Shown here in pieces: positions 34,972-42,241 of a stretch of 42,984 bases of DNA (within the stretch, counting starts at the first letter, position 1; each line of letters begins with the position of its first letter). The notes beneath the pieces were generated by a model. That model was not told the DNA's origin, searched no databases, and was given only the letters and a program-made list of their open reading frames with translations. Both the position numbers and the translations under genes were made by a program. This DNA is from a virus: IMG/VR virus record IMGVR_UViG_3300045988_157988, positions 1-42,984 of that record; one strand, 5' to 3'.

Positions 34972-36162
34972 ATGGCATTACAACCGATTAACATCGAGGT
35001 AACTGATGATGTTGAAAATTATATAACGGCTGAAATGGACGCAAAGATTTATTCACAATTAGTAAGCGAGGGAATAGCTAAAGATGTTGGAAATGCTTGT
35101 AAGGTAGTAATTGGCGAAAATGATATAAAAATTCAAAACGGACTTTTTAATATTCAAGGTTACTTTGCAAGTATAAAAGATTTTCATAGTATATCAAAAC
35201 CAGTTCAAAATAATTTTTATGTAAAAGCTAAATTTGTAAAAGGTGTATCTCAAGATGAGTTTACAATCTATACTGATACAGATAGCAATTTAACAAAACA
35301 AGACTTGTTCAACGGTGGTACTATAAGAGAAATACTTATAGCAGAGGTACGCAACAAAAACGAAGTTACAATGAAAAGTGTAAATTTATCTTTAGCAGAA
35401 ATCAGAAACGCTTTACAGAATATCTTGGAAGTTGAAAATCAAAGAGTACAAGCTGAAAAAGAAAGAATTGAAAAAGAAATAGAAAGACAAAGAAATTCAA
35501 CAGAAGTTATATCAAGAGTTGAGGGACTTATACAAACTTTATCTCAAACAGATAGTAACTTAAAAAGTGCTGAACAAAAAAGAGTGCAAGCTGAAAGTTC
35601 AAGAGAAGAAAAAATATCGACCTATACACAAAAGCTTGAAGATTTAAAGCAAGTTAAAAACTCAGTTGATGAATTACAAAGAACTTTAAACGAGCAAGTG
35701 CAGACAGCAACGGGTAAAATTGATGAAATGTCAAGGCTTAACACTTTATTAACTGAATCAGAAGATAAAAGAAAACTATCAGAAACGGAAAGAGAAAAAA
35801 AGATAGCTGAATTTGATAAACTTGTAAAAAGTTTTGATGGGACTAAAATTTCGCAGAGGTTAGATGATTTAAAAACAGATTTAAGAAATGATTTAGATAA
35901 TTTAAAAGAAGATTTAAGCGATAGCATACAAAGTAAAATGGGCGATCTTGAAACAGTTTTTTACAAAGATTTAGGCATTCAAGAAATTAAATTACTAGCG
36001 TTGATAGGAGAACTATGTTCTGATGGAACTAAACCGTTAGACAGACCATTAGGCGATGACCCAACATACTATTCATTAAGAAAAGTAGATGGTAAACTTT
36101 GCATAATAAACGGAACTATAAATGAGTTACAAGAATTTACAAAAACGCAACAAGGAGGTTAA
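34972..36162 (+). CDS. Tail fiber / baseplate protein with a central coiled-coil.
   Basis: Globular N-terminus, a long heptad-rich middle (RVQAEKERIEKEIERQR...) and a globular C-terminus. Confidence 0.5.
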   Translation: MALQPINIEVTDDVENYITAEMDAKIYSQLVSEGIAKDVGNACKVVIGENDIKIQNGLFNIQGYFASIKDFHSISKPVQNNFYVKAKFVKGVSQDEFTIYTDTDSNLTKQDLFNGGTIREILIAEVRNKNEVTMKSVNLSLAEIRNALQNILEVENQRVQAEKERIEKEIERQRNSTEVISRVEGLIQTLSQTDSNLKSAEQKRVQAESSREEKISTYTQKLEDLKQVKNSVDELQRTLNEQVQTATGKIDEMSRLNTLLTESEDKRKLSETEREKKIAEFDKLVKSFDGTKISQRLDDLKTDLRNDLDNLKEDLSDSIQSKMGDLETVFYKDLGIQEIKLLALIGELCSDGTKPLDRPLGDDPTYYSLRKVDGKLCIINGTINELQEFTKTQQGG

Positions 36163-36163
36163 A

Positions 36164-36592
36164 ATGGCTTTAGAGAAAATAACAATAGCAACGGAAGAAA
36201 AACAAGATTTAATTATAGAAAATATAAGTCTTATCAGGGCTGATGTATCACACTTAGCTAATAAAAATGATATAACAGAAATAGAAGCCTTAATTATAGA
36301 CTTGCATTCACAATCTCTTTTACAAATAAAAACAGGTGATAATACTAAAGAAAGTAATTGTAAGTATCTTTTAATAGGAGTTACAACTAGAGATGGAGAT
36401 AGGATTTTTGATAGCTTAACAGCGACTGCTACAACAGGCGATTTAATAAACCAAAATAGTTACAAGCAATGTGTAACTGATAAAACTATACAAATGGGGA
36501 GTAAAACATTTTATTTGCTAGACACGACTGTGATTGTAACTGGATATGATATGTACGGAAGTGAAAGTGCATTAATGTTAAAATTGGATTAG
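36164..36592 (+). CDS. Hypothetical tail fiber-associated protein.
   Basis: ATG at 36164 behind CAAGGAGGT. Confidence 0.45.
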   Translation: MALEKITIATEEKQDLIIENISLIRADVSHLANKNDITEIEALIIDLHSQSLLQIKTGDNTKESNCKYLLIGVTTRDGDRIFDSLTATATTGDLINQNSYKQCVTDKTIQMGSKTFYLLDTTVIVTGYDMYGSESALMLKLD

Positions 36593-36598
36593 TAAAAA

Positions 36599-36739
36599 AT
36601 GGATAAAGATTTTATAATAAATGAACTTGCTTTAAAGATTGCACAGCTTGAAGTCGAAAAAGCATTTTTAAAAAGCGAAAATCAAGACTTAAAAGCAAAA
36701 TTACAAGAAAAAGAAAAAGATAACGAAGTAAAGGCATAG
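36599..36739 (+). CDS. Small coiled-coil ORF (46 aa), XkdX-like position.
   Basis: Translated by hand. Weak RBS. Confidence 0.25.
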   Translation: MDKDFIINELALKIAQLEVEKAFLKSENQDLKAKLQEKEKDNEVKA

Positions 36740-36834
36740 TCTAGCATTAAAAATAAAAAATAATTAAAATTAGGCTATGTTTTAAGCTAAATGTTGAAAT
36801 ATCAATGCTCGAGAAAGGGAAAGGTGATTGAGTT

Positions 36835-37140
36835 GTGGATTTAAGTACAATATCAATAGTTTTAAGTATAATAGGGAGTACAATTGCTTTAATAAAGATG
36901 ATAGGTAAACCTATTATGCAAATTTTAAAGCTTCAAGAAAAGCAAACAAATGGTATAAGATGTTTGCTTAGAAAAGAAATTTTTGAAATAATAAATCGTG
37001 TTACAGAAAGAGGATATATTTTTCAAGATGAACTTGTATCACTTAGAAAACTCTTTATCAACTATAAGGAGTTAAAAGGAAATGGAATAGTAGATAAAAT
37101 GGTAGAAAGTGCTTTAAGTTTACCATTAAAAAATAAATAA
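36835..37140 (+). CDS. Holin-like protein, BhlA/SPP1-holin type: an N-terminal transmembrane segment followed by a coiled-coil.
   Basis: GTG start behind AAGGTGA. One transmembrane helix (ISIVLSIIGSTIALIKMI) and a charged helical C-terminus. Confidence 0.45.
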   Translation: MDLSTISIVLSIIGSTIALIKMIGKPIMQILKLQEKQTNGIRCLLRKEIFEIINRVTERGYIFQDELVSLRKLFINYKELKGNGIVDKMVESALSLPLKNK

Positions 37141-37158
37141 TAAAGGAGAATAGAAAAG

Positions 37159-37416
37159 ATGAAAATTAATTTAAAAGTAAGAATGAAGAATAAGACGTTT
37201 GTAATTACAATGCTAACAACTGTAATAGCTTTTATTTATCAAATATTAGCTATGTTTGAAATTGTAGCACCTATAAATAAAGAACAAGTAACACAAGTTA
37301 TAATGCTTTTAGTAAATATACTTGTAGGACTTGGAATTTTAGTTGACCCGACAACAAAAGGTGTATCAGACAGTGAAAGAGCATTAGGCTATAAAGATTT
37401 AGGTGGAAATAAGTAA
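37159..37416 (+). CDS. Holin, phiLC3 / LLH family.
   Basis: MKINLKVRMKNKTFVITMLT...VDPTTKGVSDSERALGY closely matches the phiLC3-holin family consensus (MKINWKVRLKNKTFW...VTDPTTEGLSDSERA). Confidence 0.8.
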   Translation: MKINLKVRMKNKTFVITMLTTVIAFIYQILAMFEIVAPINKEQVTQVIMLLVNILVGLGILVDPTTKGVSDSERALGYKDLGGNK

Positions 37417-37417
37417 A

Positions 37418-37621
37418 ATGGTCGCTGAATATATTAAAAGAATGTATAAGGAAGATACAGAATTATCCGACAAGATTTTTAAAGCTGAAAGAGGACTTAA
37501 AACGCTTGATTTAGACAAGAGAGAAAAAGAACTTTTAATATCTCAAGTGCAAAAGATGAAAGCATATCAAGAAGTTTTACAAGCAAGGATAAAATATGCG
37601 ATTGAAAAAGGAAAGAAATAA
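37418..37621 (+). CDS. Small helical protein (67 aa) downstream of the holins.
   Basis: ATG at 37418 behind GGTGGA. Confidence 0.4.
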   Translation: MVAEYIKRMYKEDTELSDKIFKAERGLKTLDLDKREKELLISQVQKMKAYQEVLQARIKYAIEKGKK

Positions 37622-37683
37622 TACAAGATTTGCATATAGTGTAGTATGCAACTAAAAATAAAGAAATACACGTCAAGCTGAAA

Positions 37684-37719
37684 AGTGGTATGTGATAATT
37701 AGTTGCATACCACTTTTTA
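37684..37719 (+). terminator. Rho-independent terminator after the holin block.
   Basis: Stem AGTGGTATG/CATACCACT followed by TTTTT. Confidence 0.55.
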
Positions 37720-37792
37720 ACTAAAGAAAGGTTATTTTTAATCACTCTAAAACTTTTTAAGTTACTTATAAGAAATTTTAATATAAAAATTG

Positions 37793-37820
37793 TTGACTTT
37801 TATAAAAAAAGTGGTATAAT
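37793..37820 (+). promoter_or_regulatory. Strong sigma-A promoter: TTGACT, 16-nt spacer, TGgTATAAT (extended -10), driving the DUF3800 gene.
   Basis: TTGACT at 37793-37798 and TATAAT at 37815-37820 with a TG at -15/-14. Confidence 0.65.
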
Positions 37821-37909
37821 ATATGTACAGATAGCGATATACTATACTGTGTACAGCAAGGAAGTGAATTAGAGTTTAAGCGTACTTTTAAGTACGTCAT
37901 CTTGTTGGG

Positions 37910-37933
37910 AATCGTCCATTAGGACGATTTTTT
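37910..37933 (+). promoter_or_regulatory. Terminator-like hairpin plus U-tract in the 5' leader, immediately upstream of the DUF3800 RBS; candidate attenuator.
   Basis: Stem AATCGTCC/GGACGATT (8 bp) with loop ATTA and then TTTTTT. The RBS AGGAG lies 6 nt further on. A second hairpin sits at 37880-37897. Confidence 0.45.
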
Positions 37934-37948
37934 ATTATAGGAGTTAAT

Positions 37949-38638
37949 ATGAATTTGTATGTTTATTCTGATGAATCAGGAGTTTTTGATTATATAAATA
38001 ATAAGTATTTTATATTTGCAGGAATAATCCTTTTTTCTAAAGAAGAAAAAGAAAATTTAGAAAGAAAATATAGAACTATAGAAAAAGATATTTATAAAAA
38101 TAATAACTATGTTGGAGAATTAAAAGCTAAAGTTTTGAAATATAAAGAAAAACGTAGATTATATAATATTTTTAAAAATGCAAATAAATTTTGTTGTATA
38201 ATAAAACAAGAAAAGATTTTAAAAAATATATATTCTGATAAAAAAAGTAAACAAAGATACTTGGATTACGCTTTTAAAATATCGATAAAAGAAGCTTTTA
38301 AAAGTATGATAAAACAAAATTTAATAGATGAAAATGAAATAGATAATATTATAGTATATTGTGATGAACATACAACGGCTACAAACGGAAAGTATGAACT
38401 TAGGGAAGCCTTGCTAAACGAGTTTAAGCGCGGAACTTTTAATAGAGAATGGAATATATTTTATGAACCGTTATTTAAAAATATGAAAGATGTAAAATTA
38501 AAATATTGTAATTCAGAACATACTACTTTAGTAAGAGGAGCTGATATAATAGCTAATAAAGTATATGCAATAGCTGTAAATGAAAACTGGGAAGTTTTAA
38601 GGAATTTAGAAAACATGAATATAAAAAAATTACCATAA
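37949..38638 (+). CDS. DUF3800-family protein (moron inside the lysis cassette).
   Basis: N-terminal LYVYSDESG and C-terminal CDEHTTA...LVRGADIIANKVY match the two conserved DUF3800 motif regions. 229 aa. Has its own promoter. Confidence 0.6.
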   Translation: MNLYVYSDESGVFDYINNKYFIFAGIILFSKEEKENLERKYRTIEKDIYKNNNYVGELKAKVLKYKEKRRLYNIFKNANKFCCIIKQEKILKNIYSDKKSKQRYLDYAFKISIKEAFKSMIKQNLIDENEIDNIIVYCDEHTTATNGKYELREALLNEFKRGTFNREWNIFYEPLFKNMKDVKLKYCNSEHTTLVRGADIIANKVYAIAVNENWEVLRNLENMNIKKLP

Positions 38639-38686
38639 AGCAATTATCAAAAATGATAGTTGCTTTTTTAATGCAAGAAAGGGAAA

Positions 38687-39598
38687 ATGACTATGAATAA
38701 AAACGATAAAATGATTGGGTGGTTCAAAGAAAGACAAGGCAAAGTAACTTATTCAATGAATAATAGAACGGGGAGCAAGAGTTATGACTGTTCAAGTGCT
38801 GTATATTATGCAGTGTGTGAGGCTTTAGGTTTGAAAGTTGAATATCCAAAGAATACAGCAACTTTACCAGAGTGGCTTTTGCGAAATGGCTTTGAAAGAA
38901 TTGCTGTAAATAGTGAGTGGACGGCTGAACGTGGAGATATAGTAATTTGGTCTAAACGTAAAGGTGTTGCTGGAGCAGAGGCACATACAGGAATTTTTAC
39001 AGATAATTCTCATATCATACATTGTAATTATAATGCAAATGGAATAAGCGAAAATACTGAAAATAGCTTGTCAAGTTTATATAATTGGTATTATGAAGTA
39101 TTTAGATTAAACGACAACAGCCCTACTTGGCAATCAAATTCTACAGGTTGGTGGTATGAACATTCAGACGGAAGTTATCCGCAAAGTGAATGGAAAAAAA
39201 TAGACAATGAATGGTACTATTTTGACGAAAAAGGTTACGCTTATCAAAATAAATGGCTTAATTATGAAAATAATTGGTACTATTTTGATAATAGCTGTAA
39301 AATGTGTTTTGGCAAATGGAAGTACATTCAAGAAACTTGGTATTACTTTGATAATGACGGAATAACTTATCAAAATAAATGGTTAAAATATAAAGATAAA
39401 TGGTACTACTTTGATAATAGTTGTAAGATGTTGAAAGATACATTTTTTAATGCAGGAAACGAAAGATTTTATGTAAATAGTGATGGTATTTGCGATTTGT
39501 CTTATACTAAGAAAATCAACAACAAAACTTATGCTTTTGACGAAAGAGGAGCTTTGATAACAAGCAAAGTTATAAACGAAAAAGGCGAAATAGAATAG
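38687..39598 (+). CDS. Endolysin: Amidase_5 (Pal-like N-acetylmuramoyl-L-alanine amidase) with C-terminal choline-binding repeats.
   Basis: The N-terminus GKVTYSMNNRTGSKSYDCSS...ERGDIVIWSKRKGVAGAEAHTGIFTDNSHIIHCNYNANGIS aligns with the pneumococcal phage Dp-1 Pal amidase motifs. The C-terminus has four or more W-Y-Y-F-D repeats (CW_binding_1). Confidence 0.8.
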   Translation: MTMNKNDKMIGWFKERQGKVTYSMNNRTGSKSYDCSSAVYYAVCEALGLKVEYPKNTATLPEWLLRNGFERIAVNSEWTAERGDIVIWSKRKGVAGAEAHTGIFTDNSHIIHCNYNANGISENTENSLSSLYNWYYEVFRLNDNSPTWQSNSTGWWYEHSDGSYPQSEWKKIDNEWYYFDEKGYAYQNKWLNYENNWYYFDNSCKMCFGKWKYIQETWYYFDNDGITYQNKWLKYKDKWYYFDNSCKMLKDTFFNAGNERFYVNSDGICDLSYTKKINNKTYAFDERGALITSKVINEKGEIE

Positions 39599-39618
39599 GG
39601 GCTATCAAGCCCCTTTTT
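39597..39618. terminator. Terminator hairpin between the convergent lysin gene and the minus-strand cassette.
   Basis: Stem AGGGGCT/AGCCCCT, loop ATCA, then TTTTT. Confidence 0.6.
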
Positions 39619-39988
39619 ATTTTTCGAATTTTATTATATTTTCAATATCAAAATTATATTCAGTAGTTGCAAATTCTATTTCTATAAATCCATCTTTTAA
39701 TTCTTCGACTTCTTCTCTTGTAAAAAATTCATTTTCTATAATTTCTTCAAAAGGAAGAATATCTTCATCTTTATATAAATAAAACTCAACTTTACCATTA
39801 CAATTTACAAAAGTTTTTAAAATACAATTTTTATTTTCATTAAATACTTCAAATTCACACAATCTATCATTTTCTTTCCAATCAAAATGTGTTCCGTCGT
39901 TGCCGTTCATATAACGAATTACACTTTCTTTTTTTAAAATTTCATTTATTTTATCTCTCAATTTAATTAATTGTTCTTTCATTTTCAA
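39617..39988 (-). CDS. Hypothetical acidic protein (123 aa), accessory cassette gene 4.
   Basis: Has its own copy of the palindrome-containing promoter. RBS GGAAAGGGGAT. Confidence 0.55.
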   Translation of the reverse strand: MKMKEQLIKLRDKINEILKKESVIRYMNGNDGTHFDWKENDRLCEFEVFNENKNCILKTFVNCNGKVEFYLYKDEDILPFEEIIENEFFTREEVEELKDGFIEIEFATTEYNFDIENIIKFEK

Positions 39989-40014
39989 AATCCCCTTTCC
40001 TTATTGTAATTATA

Positions 40015-40042
40015 TTATAACATATTATTAATAATATGTCAA
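40015..40042 (-). promoter_or_regulatory. Consensus sigma-A promoter TTGACA, 16-nt spacer, TATAAT, with the 20-bp perfect palindrome ACATATTATTAATAATATGT (40020..40039) in the spacer. Copy 1.
   Basis: Minus-strand -35 at 40042..40037 and -10 at 40020..40015. The palindrome was read directly from the sequence. Confidence 0.65.
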
Positions 40043-40062
40043 TACTTTTTTTACAACTTTTT

Positions 40063-40269
40063 TTAAAATTTTTTTAAATTTTCTTTAATTAATTCTTGCA
40101 ATTCTTCCAAATCCTCTTTTTTAGCTAATGCTCGTATAAAACCCCTAGCATTAGAACGTCTGTTTAAATAGTTTTTGTATTCTTTATTTTTTTCAATCCA
40201 TCTTTTGTCAGCTTCTTTTTGTTGTTGAGCAGTTTTGTAACCTTTTCTTTTTTTATCTTTATTCTCCAT
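40063..40269 (-). CDS. Small basic protein (68 aa, K/R-rich); candidate DNA-binding regulator.
   Basis: Last gene of a three-gene minus-strand operon. The GGAGG RBS lies 13 nt upstream of the ATG. Confidence 0.45.
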   Translation of the reverse strand: MENKDKKRKGYKTAQQQKEADKRWIEKNKEYKNYLNRRSNARGFIRALAKKEDLEELQELIKENLKKF

Positions 40270-40270
40270 T

Positions 40271-40570
40271 TTATTTTAAAATCCTCCAAAATTTTTGAAA
40301 AATATTTTGTGCTTTTTCAATTTCAACAAAATTTTCAAAAACATCTTTGCTTAGCGTTGCATCACTCTTGATAACTATATGATGAAAGAAATTACTTTGA
40401 TATTTTGAATTTTCATTATCGTACATTGTAACGATACAATCACAAGCATTTTTATCTAAATCTATAAAGTATTCTTTTTTATTGAATACAATTTTTATTT
40501 TTTGAGTTTTCCCACACTCGAAATCGCTTAAAAATATAGTTTCTTTTTGTAAATCAAATTCTTTTTTCAT
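40271..40570 (-). CDS. Hypothetical protein (99 aa).
   Basis: RBS AAGGAGAT. Middle gene of the operon. Confidence 0.5.
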   Translation of the reverse strand: MKKEFDLQKETIFLSDFECGKTQKIKIVFNKKEYFIDLDKNACDCIVTMYDNENSKYQSNFFHHIVIKSDATLSKDVFENFVEIEKAQNIFQKFWRILK

Positions 40571-40588
40571 AATTTTTTATCTCCTTTT

Positions 40589-40960
40589 TTAATAAATTTT
40601 AACATTACACATTTCATGCATTTTCATAAAAGAATGTTTTTTAAAAGTACATTCACTATTTAATTGTTCTTCTGACAAAAATTCTAAATCTTCAAAAGTT
40701 ATATCATCTTTTTCAAAAAATAAGTTTTCAAATTTTTGTGAATTACTATTATAAGTTTTGAAATATTTTCTTTCTATTTCTGCATTCAAGCAATAAGCCC
40801 AGCTGTGTTCATCTCTCAAAACTCCAAATTCACATTTGAAATCGGGTACATAAATGACTTTATTTTTAGCAACAGCTATAACAAATGTTGAAAATCTTTC
40901 TCCACTTTTAGCATATAGTACATTATCAATTGCAAATCTAACTTTAACACTTTCTTTCAT
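40589..40960 (-). CDS. Hypothetical protein (123 aa), first gene of the minus-strand operon.
   Basis: Preceded by the identical promoter/operator/RBS module (GGAAAGGGGAT). Confidence 0.55.
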   Translation of the reverse strand: MKESVKVRFAIDNVLYAKSGERFSTFVIAVAKNKVIYVPDFKCEFGVLRDEHSWAYCLNAEIERKYFKTYNSNSQKFENLFFEKDDITFEDLEFLSEEQLNSECTFKKHSFMKMHEMCNVKIY

Positions 40961-41248: not shown

Positions 41249-42241
41249 TTATTTTAAAAGATTGATTGTATCTCTAAGCTCATCAAGTGTCTTGTGAGTA
41301 TATACTCTATTACCTACATCTTTACTTTTATGACCCATTAGTAAGTCGATACATTTTTGATTACCTCCTGCACTATCTAATTTACTTCTAAATGTATGTC
41401 TTGTTTCGTGCACTGTATGATGAGGGAATATTTTTTTAAAGTTAGCGCAAAAGGTAACTTTTTTATAATTGTTTATTAAATATTTATTATCTTCGTTGTA
41501 AAATTCTTGTACTATATCAAAGATATAATTGTGAATTGGTATTATTCTGTTTTTTCCGTTTTCTGTTTTTATTCCACCCTTTATAGTTCTTTCTTCAAGA
41601 TTGATATTTTTGTTTTCTATTTTAAAAAGTTCACTTCCTCTCATTCCTGTATAGAGTAACAATAAAATTACTTTGTATGTTAAATTTTGCCTATTATTTT
41701 TAACTTTTTCTATTTCTTCATCTGTTAATATCGTTCGAGTTGTTTCAGGTGTTTTATCAGTAGTTAATAACGATGAATAACTAACTTGTATTATTTCAGT
41801 TTCTAAAGCTAATTTGTCAAGATGATTAAATAAGTTTTTTATTTGTGATTGAGTTGAATAACTTAAATTACTGTTATCTATTATATCTTGTATATCATAA
41901 GACTTTATTTCACGATATACCTTATCATAAAGTGGTTTAACGTGATTGTTATATGCTGATATTAAGCATTTTTGATTACAAATACCTAGTTTATTTAATT
42001 TCTTTTCGTAAAACAACTCCCATAACTCTTTTAAAGTGGTTGTTGACTTGTCTAGGTCATAAGGATTTTTATTATATTCAGCAAGGGCAATATTTGCCTC
42101 TTGTTTTGTTCTATAATAGCCGATTGGCTTTATAATTTGCTTTCCGTCATCACTCCAACCCACAGTGATTTTAGCCATATATGGGTTACGTCTTTTTCCT
42201 GATAGCTTTACAACACTACCGTATCCGTTAGGGTTTCTCAT
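41249..42241 (-). CDS. int: Tyrosine site-specific integrase.
   Basis: C-terminal catalytic region HETRHTFRS...LLMGHKS...VYTH with the R/H-x-x-R/Y pattern. 330 aa, at the edge of the lysogeny module. Confidence 0.85.
   Translation of the reverse strand: MRNPNGYGSVVKLSGKRRNPYMAKITVGWSDDGKQIIKPIGYYRTKQEANIALAEYNKNPYDLDKSTTTLKELWELFYEKKLNKLGICNQKCLISAYNNHVKPLYDKVYREIKSYDIQDIIDNSNLSYSTQSQIKNLFNHLDKLALETEIIQVSYSSLLTTDKTPETTRTILTDEEIEKVKNNRQNLTYKVILLLLYTGMRGSELFKIENKNINLEERTIKGGIKTENGKNRIIPIHNYIFDIVQEFYNEDNKYLINNYKKVTFCANFKKIFPHHTVHETRHTFRSKLDSAGGNQKCIDLLMGHKSKDVGNRVYTHKTLDELRDTINLLK

Follow-up and report, generated by a model that had tools for sequence, protein, structure and literature searches.

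The window analysed here is a stretch of viral DNA of 42,984 nt (IMG/VR virus record IMGVR_UViG_3300045988_157988, positions 1 to 42,984), in which an accessory cassette of 951 nt (37732-38682, + strand) lies inside the lysis module of a temperate siphophage, upstream of the endolysin gene. The cassette is made up of a promoter, a structured small RNA (sRNA) of the DUF3800-I family, the intrinsic terminator of this RNA, a gene encoding a DUF3800 protein of 229 amino acids with a predicted nuclease fold, and a second terminator that closes the unit. Of this anatomy, and of the family membership of both RNA and protein, we are very confident. A preliminary description of the region had proposed a self-contained inserted gene, or moron, preceded by a leader under conditional control, and all of the features that it described are present in the sequence, at or near where it placed them. 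As will be discussed below, the interpretation of several of these features is nevertheless different.

The promoter is of the sigma-70 type (TTGACT-16-TGgTATAAT, 37793-37820, +). As judged from its sequence only, it agrees with the consensus at 11 out of 12 positions and has in addition, as had been recognized before, the TG extension of the -10 element; within the 4.5 kb scanned, only one site ranks higher. Its -10 element ends ca. 5-6 nt 5' of the first stem of the RNA and, by this position, transcription would start essentially at that stem. The RNA (37820-37941, +) has a length of ca. 105 nt and consists of hairpin P1 (37826-37851), a three-way P2 domain (37854-37907, including P2a at 37867-37876 and P2b at 37880-37897) in which unpaired bases are highly conserved, and a strong hairpin (37908-37931) followed by a U-run that ends at 37933. 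This terminator, AATCGTCC-ATTA-GGACGATT plus the T-run (37910-37933), ends 6 nt before the ribosome-binding site (RBS) GGAG (37940-37943, +) that can be read in the sequence, and the open reading frame (ORF) of the DUF3800 protein (37949-38638, +) starts 15 nt past the U-run. The leader as a whole (37826-37933) folds better than shuffled sequence (z -3.51). Directly at the end of the ORF we encountered a further terminator-like hairpin with a 13-bp stem and a T-run (38637-38666, +; -13.9 kcal/mol, z -2.89), which is missing from the preliminary description and which is conserved base for base in a copy of the cassette in another phage (locus L161, see below). A hairpin with a T-run within 110 nt past the stop codon occurs at 62 out of 128 related loci, compared to 8 random control windows from the same loci.

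The dyad at the predicted start site and the two leader hairpins reported in the preliminary description are indeed present, but they do not form an anonymous leader: they represent P1, P2/P2b and the terminator of the DUF3800-I RNA (Rfam RF02969). The match to this family is full-length, spanning positions 1-115 of the 115 in the model, and scores 85.9 bits where the gathering score is 44.2 (E 3.7e-12); in an Rfam scan of the whole window only one other match, to the 6A RNA, exceeded its gathering score. With our purpose-built covariance model R1, constructed from 16 upstream regions of related loci, the RNA scores 90.2 bits, and the sequence in the window forms every consensus stem of RF02969. 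The structure is well supported by covariation in 76 distinct sequences, where 97.9% of the cells are paired and 23 out of 29 pairs have changed on both sides; none of 500 shuffles attained as high a covariation score, and structures slid by 1-3 columns collapse. Rfam classes RF02969 as an sRNA gene. The DUF3800-I RNA and its association with DUF3800 genes were published by Weinberg et al. (2017; NAR 45:10811; PMC5737381). Our literature search yielded no functional follow-up study of the skipping-rope and drum motifs.

To establish how tightly RNA and protein are linked, 80 IMG/VR loci and 80 loci from GTDB species genomes were examined, out of 1586 homologues of the protein at E <= 1e-3. These loci are mostly from Bacillota, with some metagenome-assembled genomes (MAGs) labelled Prevotella, Sutterella, Varibaculum and Spirochaetales. 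With model R1 the RNA was detected directly upstream of the gene and on the same strand at 79 out of 80 viral and 78 out of 80 genome loci. Two of the loci missed (L008 and L134) hold no upstream DNA, so that the RNA directly precedes the gene in 157 of the 158 related loci where upstream DNA is available. An alignment of the 50 nt 5' of P1 for 76 non-redundant loci from several phyla revealed a promoter in nearly all of them, with the consensus TTGACA-17-TATAAT and a -10 element ending 6-7 nt before P1. The terminator hairpin of the family has a median stability of -12 kcal/mol, with 7-8 U among the 9 nt behind it, and the end of its stem lies a median of 24 nt from the start codon (range 11-54; 75 loci). 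A spacing of about 24 nt leaves no room for a second promoter and, therefore, expression of the ORF would require read-through of the terminator.

Among the related loci with upstream DNA, only L132, from a Phascolarctobacterium MAG, is without the DUF3800-I RNA. In its place (1089-1222) there are five imperfect direct repeats of 21 nt (AAACCACAGnAAnTGACAAAG, spaced 22-29 nt), followed by a T-run and an RBS. This array resembles the repeat array of a type III antitoxin or a set of operator sites. A scan of the viral contigs for the repeat pattern produced only single chance matches, none of them near a DUF3800 gene.

A different arrangement is found in Streptococcus phage Javan110 (L311), whose DUF3800 protein is 33% identical to that in the window. 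The gene for this protein is part of the lysogeny module, where it overlaps the end of a cI-like helix-turn-helix (HTH; Cro/CI-family) gene beside that of the integrase. The DUF3800-I RNA (L311, 3734-3858; Rfam 68.2 bits) lies downstream of the DUF3800 gene and has a promoter (TTGACA-17-TGtACAAT) and a terminator of its own. A clear downstream match (42-48 bits) was also obtained for 8 out of 10 IMG/VR relatives of Javan110 (92-100% identical); L313 gave a weak, partial downstream match (20.9 bits), and L312 is the Javan110 contig itself. In the satellite prophage Javan632, the RNA lies upstream of the gene. The layout of the Javan110 locus (L311, 2619-3858) suggests co-expression with the repressor in lysogens. 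Weinberg et al. (2017) describe that the RNA can be associated with the DUF3800 gene on either side and in either orientation. Together with the downstream position in Javan110, this points to an RNA that is an independent gene acting in trans, and we think it probable, though by no means certain, that the RNA is a trans-acting partner of the protein.

The assignment of the protein to DUF3800 in the preliminary description was borne out by a search with Pfam hidden Markov models (PF12686; E 5.5e-12; 47.1 bits against a cut-off of 21). Its AlphaFold2 model has a mean predicted local distance difference test (pLDDT) score of 92.8, and an RNase H2/H3-like nuclease fold is predicted, in agreement with published fold assignments for DUF3800 (PMC7736814; PMC10910872). 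Among the residues that are invariant in 24 homologues, D8-E9-S10-G11 lie where strand 1 ends, D139 and H141 where strand 4 ends (E140 is nearly invariant), and D199 together with N203 in the helix that follows strand 5; the set also contains many Lys and Arg residues, and the protein is basic (pI 9.2). The acidic positions D8, E9, D139 and D199 are in keeping with the predicted nuclease fold. A profile search of the PDB gave no meaningful match, and at the sequence level Pfam returns DUF3800 only, with no membership of the RNase H2/H3 or PIWI nucleases. In PHROGs the protein falls in phrog_30113, a family of unknown function. In type VII retrons the accessory or effector component is a DUF3800 domain (PMC7736814), and such domains also accompany Cas12a2/Cas12a3 and Cas13 CASK loci (PMC10910872; PMC13594972; bioRxiv 10.64898/2026.08.25.746378). 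None of these four reports demonstrates an activity of the domain, and the earlier statement that DUF3800 has no established function holds for the literature searched.

In the window the cassette is preceded by the genes of a Phage_holin_1 holin (37159-37416) and of Sequestin (37418-37621, +) and followed by that of an endolysin with Amidase_5 and choline-binding domains (38687-39598), all identified with Pfam. The Sequestin gene, which encodes 67 amino acids (PF21825, crAss001_48, now labelled Sequestin; E 6.4e-12), is missing from the preliminary description. This family is a phage sponge that sequesters 3'cADPR and thereby cancels type I Thoeris (bioRxiv 10.1101/2025.07.12.664507), so that the lysis cassette contains an anti-defence gene. 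The IMG/VR phage L171, with a holin 96% and a lysin 95% identical to those of the window, has the empty site: its order is holin-Sequestin-hairpin-lysin, without a DUF3800 gene, and the counterpart of 37732-38682 is missing. The alignment with L171 contains two insertions in the window, of 50 nt (37624-37673) and 951 nt (37732-38682). The larger one, i.e., the cassette, is flanked by an 8-nt direct repeat, AAGAAAGG, found by exact-string search and in the L171 alignment on the left (37724-37731, +) and on the right (38675-38682, +), where it overlaps the purine-rich RBS region of the endolysin gene. The hairpin that was previously taken to close the holin transcript (37679-37719, +; 18-bp stem followed by a U-run) is real and intrinsic-terminator-like (-25.6 kcal/mol, z -5.25; none of 200 shuffles folds as well). 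However, L171 carries an identical hairpin, directly before the RBS of its lysin gene, and the structure is therefore part of the phage backbone and lies outside the insert, at its left boundary.

A copy of the cassette with ca. 90% identical DNA (corresponding to ca. 37730-38687) occurs at another junction, between holin and Sequestin, in L161, L162 and L164; in L161 the order is holin-cassette-Sequestin-Amidase_2. No DUF3800 gene was found nearby at any of 39 holin-related phage loci. Together with the empty site in L171 and the promoter and terminators that the cassette brings along, this upholds the view of the preliminary description that the cassette is a self-contained inserted unit. 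The GC content of the cassette (23.1%) differs modestly from that of its flanks (29.5%). The flanking repeat overlaps the purine-rich RBS sequence, and for this reason we read recombination at microhomology, rather than transposition, as the probable route of insertion. At ca. 130 non-redundant loci the neighbours lie on either strand, and the commonest are lysins, holins, integrases, antirepressor-type proteins (ORF6C/Rha/Bro), HTH regulators and ERF; these neighbourhoods are typical accessory hot-spots of prophages. The chromosome of Blautia producta DSM 2950 contains three copies of the RNA-DUF3800 module (L144, L145, L146). Mobility of the cassette alone was considered for these copies and rejected; they share flanks of 7-10 kb that are 98-99.6% identical and represent related prophages. 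A search of the phage collection with the DNA of the lysis region in distant mode returned short lysin and DUF3800 fragments only and no close relative. Next to a related cassette (L163) there are host genes that cluster with Parvimonas micra proteins and, hence, the host of the phage is probably Parvimonas or a close relative.

The explanation that, as a whole, accounts best for these data is an autonomous moron that carries an RNA-protein module, in which the RNA guards or partners a nuclease; we would give it an even chance of being correct. The strong promoter followed by a terminator would yield much more RNA than protein, with the DUF3800 ORF expressed through terminator read-through only and the amount of nuclease limited by it. 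The abundant RNA would act in trans as the dedicated partner of the protein, most likely by binding the basic, RNase H-like protein and either restraining it or directing and licensing its nuclease activity, a logic like that of a type III toxin-antitoxin pair or of a retron, in which a non-coding nucleic acid is combined with an effector. The prophage would express the module without recourse to the late lysis transcript, and superinfection exclusion, abortive infection or prophage addiction would then be the most plausible biology, the first two much as the preliminary description had suggested. That the cassette indeed functions as a guarded nuclease in defence or addiction is a tentative proposal. 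It is also doubtful, albeit conceivable, that the DUF3800-I RNA and the RNase H2-like protein constitute an uncharacterised class of RNA-guarded nucleases, which may be analogous to a type III toxin-antitoxin system without repeats or to a retron without reverse transcriptase.

Several other explanations have to be weighed against a trans-acting RNA partner, two of which assign the RNA a role in cis. The preliminary description favoured attenuation or antitermination, where the 5' structure would sense a ligand or factor and so set termination at 37933 or read-through. In the subfamily of the window's protein the RNA is always in the 5' untranslated region, with its terminator immediately before the RBS, and its many invariant unpaired bases resemble an aptamer. 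However, the arms of the terminator have no conserved alternative pairing in the 76 sequences, in which duplexes between these arms and upstream sequence reach -6.9 and -7.7 kcal/mol compared to -7.0 and -7.0 kcal/mol after shuffling. We have downgraded the attenuator model since, without a signal for an antiterminator, the usual expression platform of a riboswitch or attenuator is absent. The terminator also abuts P2 without a linker, the RNA in the Javan110 lineage is downstream of the gene and has its own promoter, the leader belongs to a family that Rfam types as an sRNA gene, and the DUF3800 motifs were deemed improbable riboswitches in the original report (Weinberg et al., 2017; PMC5737381). 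Conditional control of this kind, as formerly envisaged, thus finds no support, and we consider it quite improbable. Alternatively, the DUF3800 protein could control its own abundance by binding or cleaving its leader RNA, which would have no other role. RNA and protein are tightly co-inherited, the protein is basic and nuclease-like, and an expression that depends on read-through invites feedback. Yet a strong dedicated promoter and an RNA conserved across phyla exceed what a feedback site needs, and the RNA of Javan110 lies outside the mRNA, which makes autoregulation or processing unlikely.

Two further explanations concern the role of the cassette in the phage rather than that of the RNA in the transcript. 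One of them is counter-defence, in which the pair of RNA and nuclease, or a decoy role of the RNA, would disable host immunity alongside the anti-Thoeris sponge Sequestin. The cassette adjoins Sequestin both in the window and in the L161 phage, with the order swapped, and this adjacency marks an accessory hot-spot within the lysis module. However, the module also occurs at many sites without Sequestin, i.e., beside integrases and repressors, in a satellite prophage and in apparently non-phage chromosomal contexts, and its constitutive-type promoter fits expression in the lysogen better than early lytic expression; counter-defence is accordingly held to be a rather small possibility. The cassette might also be a selfish mobile element resembling a homing endonuclease or a tiny DDE transposon, with the protein catalysing its own spread. 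Presence and absence differ between close relatives, the same cassette is found at two junctions, 8-nt direct repeats flank it, and its predicted RNase H-like fold occurs in DDE transposases as well. A transposon was nevertheless rejected: the ends of the cassette have no inverted repeats, the 8-nt repeat coincides with an RBS-like sequence, and L161 has no clear duplication. A selfish nuclease cassette of any kind seems very improbable.

Returning to the RNA as guard or partner of a nuclease, a number of observations speak against this explanation or limit its reach. Activity, binding and toxicity of either RNA or protein are predictions from sequence, and the toxin-antitoxin analogy is one of architecture. 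The RNA-downstream order, which argues for action in trans, is seen in essentially one lineage of Streptococcus prophages, and the adjacency to Sequestin in two phages could equally indicate counter-defence. Weinberg et al. (2017; PMC5737381) record no self-cleavage of the RNA and offer no hypothesis on its role. The PADLOC search suggested in the preliminary description gave no match to the DUF3800 protein, and neither PADLOC nor NCBIfam recognized it as a component of a defence system. Type III toxin-antitoxin systems also differ from the pair in the window in both partners. Type III antitoxins are tandem-repeat arrays, whereas the RNA of the cassette is a single structured unit, and Tandem Repeats Finder detected no repeat in 37793-37948. 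The toxins of these systems are endoribonucleases of the ToxN, AbiQ, CptN and TenpN types, whereas the cassette protein is predicted to be RNase H2-like.

If the proposal is nonetheless true, infection by another phage would free the nuclease once the RNA is lost or displaced, and this would protect the lysogen population or make lysogens dependent on the prophage, and the other ten DUF3800 RNA motifs would be alternative cognate guards. The DUF3800 motifs (I-XI, drum and skipping-rope) have been puzzling orphan RNAs since 2017, as they are complex, widespread and associated with one protein domain; the papers searched contain no published hypothesis for them. The window adds a compact and bounded example, i.e., a cassette of 951 bp with an empty-site relative (L171) and a second context (L161). 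Javan632 (S. uberis C8329), with the RNA before the gene, and Javan110 (S. constellatus KCOM 1650), with the RNA after it, are annotated Streptococcus prophages in which the relation between RNA and protein is directly testable.

Apart from the cassette, the window has some other features of note. The second Rfam match is a 6A RNA (RF02925; 37626-37678, +; 44.2 bits against a gathering score of 41.2), located between the Sequestin stop codon and the backbone hairpin and coinciding with the 50-nt insertion (37624-37673) relative to L171. L165, L168 and L172 have it in the same position (46.6-50.1 bits), whereas L161 and L171 lack it. Between the endolysin gene and the integrase gene (41249-42241, - strand) there are four small ORFs on the minus strand (39617-40960; 123, 68, 99 and 123 amino acids), for which no match was found in Pfam, PADLOC or NCBIfam; the ORF of 68 amino acids matches phrog_2277. 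A promoter that agrees with the consensus at 12 out of 12 positions (TTGACA-17-TGnTATAAT, 40042-40014, -) precedes the 123-amino-acid ORF at 39617-39988. The region 39617-40960, which has a GC content of only 20-25%, looks like a second moron-like accessory region. A GC-rich hairpin (AGGGGCT-TGAT-AGCCCCT, 39597-39614) with T-rich runs on both strands, called as terminator-like on either strand, separates the convergent endolysin gene and the 123-amino-acid ORF.

How the cassette relates to known systems can be judged from its architecture. Type III toxin-antitoxin systems (ToxIN, AbiQ/antiQ, CptIN, TenpIN) share with it the succession of promoter, non-coding RNA, intrinsic terminator and protein gene, the terminator between RNA and protein gene being located at 37908-37933 in the window, and both are small two-part modules on mobile elements or prophages. 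Type VII retrons (Mestre et al., 2020) likewise combine an RNase H-like protein of the DUF3800 family with a structured non-coding nucleic acid of their own and are mobile and defence-associated. They comprise, however, a reverse transcriptase, a non-coding RNA and a DUF3800 effector, whereas the cassette has a single ORF, and its RNA is DUF3800-I and not msr/msd; Pfam identified no reverse-transcriptase domain in the flanking ORFs of 34972-39988, and no retron model of PADLOC matched. Consequently, the cassette belongs to neither of these two families.

As a transcription unit, the cassette corresponds to the phage moron, a concept reportedly described by Juhala and colleagues in 2000 and by Hendrix. 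Like a moron, it is an extra unit, equipped with what appear to be a promoter and a terminator of its own, and it separates genes that are neighbours in a close relative: it is absent at the same junction in L171, and its base composition is likewise distinct from that of the flanks. The difference lies in the cargo, which is an RNA-protein pair here and a single protein gene in morons. The closest relative is the DUF3800-I RNA with its DUF3800 gene itself, with which the window shares the stems, the conserved loops, the Rho-independent terminator at the 3' end and the adjacency to the gene. Nothing essential differs, and the pair in the window is a member of this group, i.e., a further example of the pair described in 2017 and not a new kind of element. 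What our analysis adds to the known pair is a conserved dedicated promoter, an ORF apparently dependent on read-through with no detectable antiterminator, precise boundaries of the cassette as inferred from an empty-site relative, and a placement inside the lysis module.

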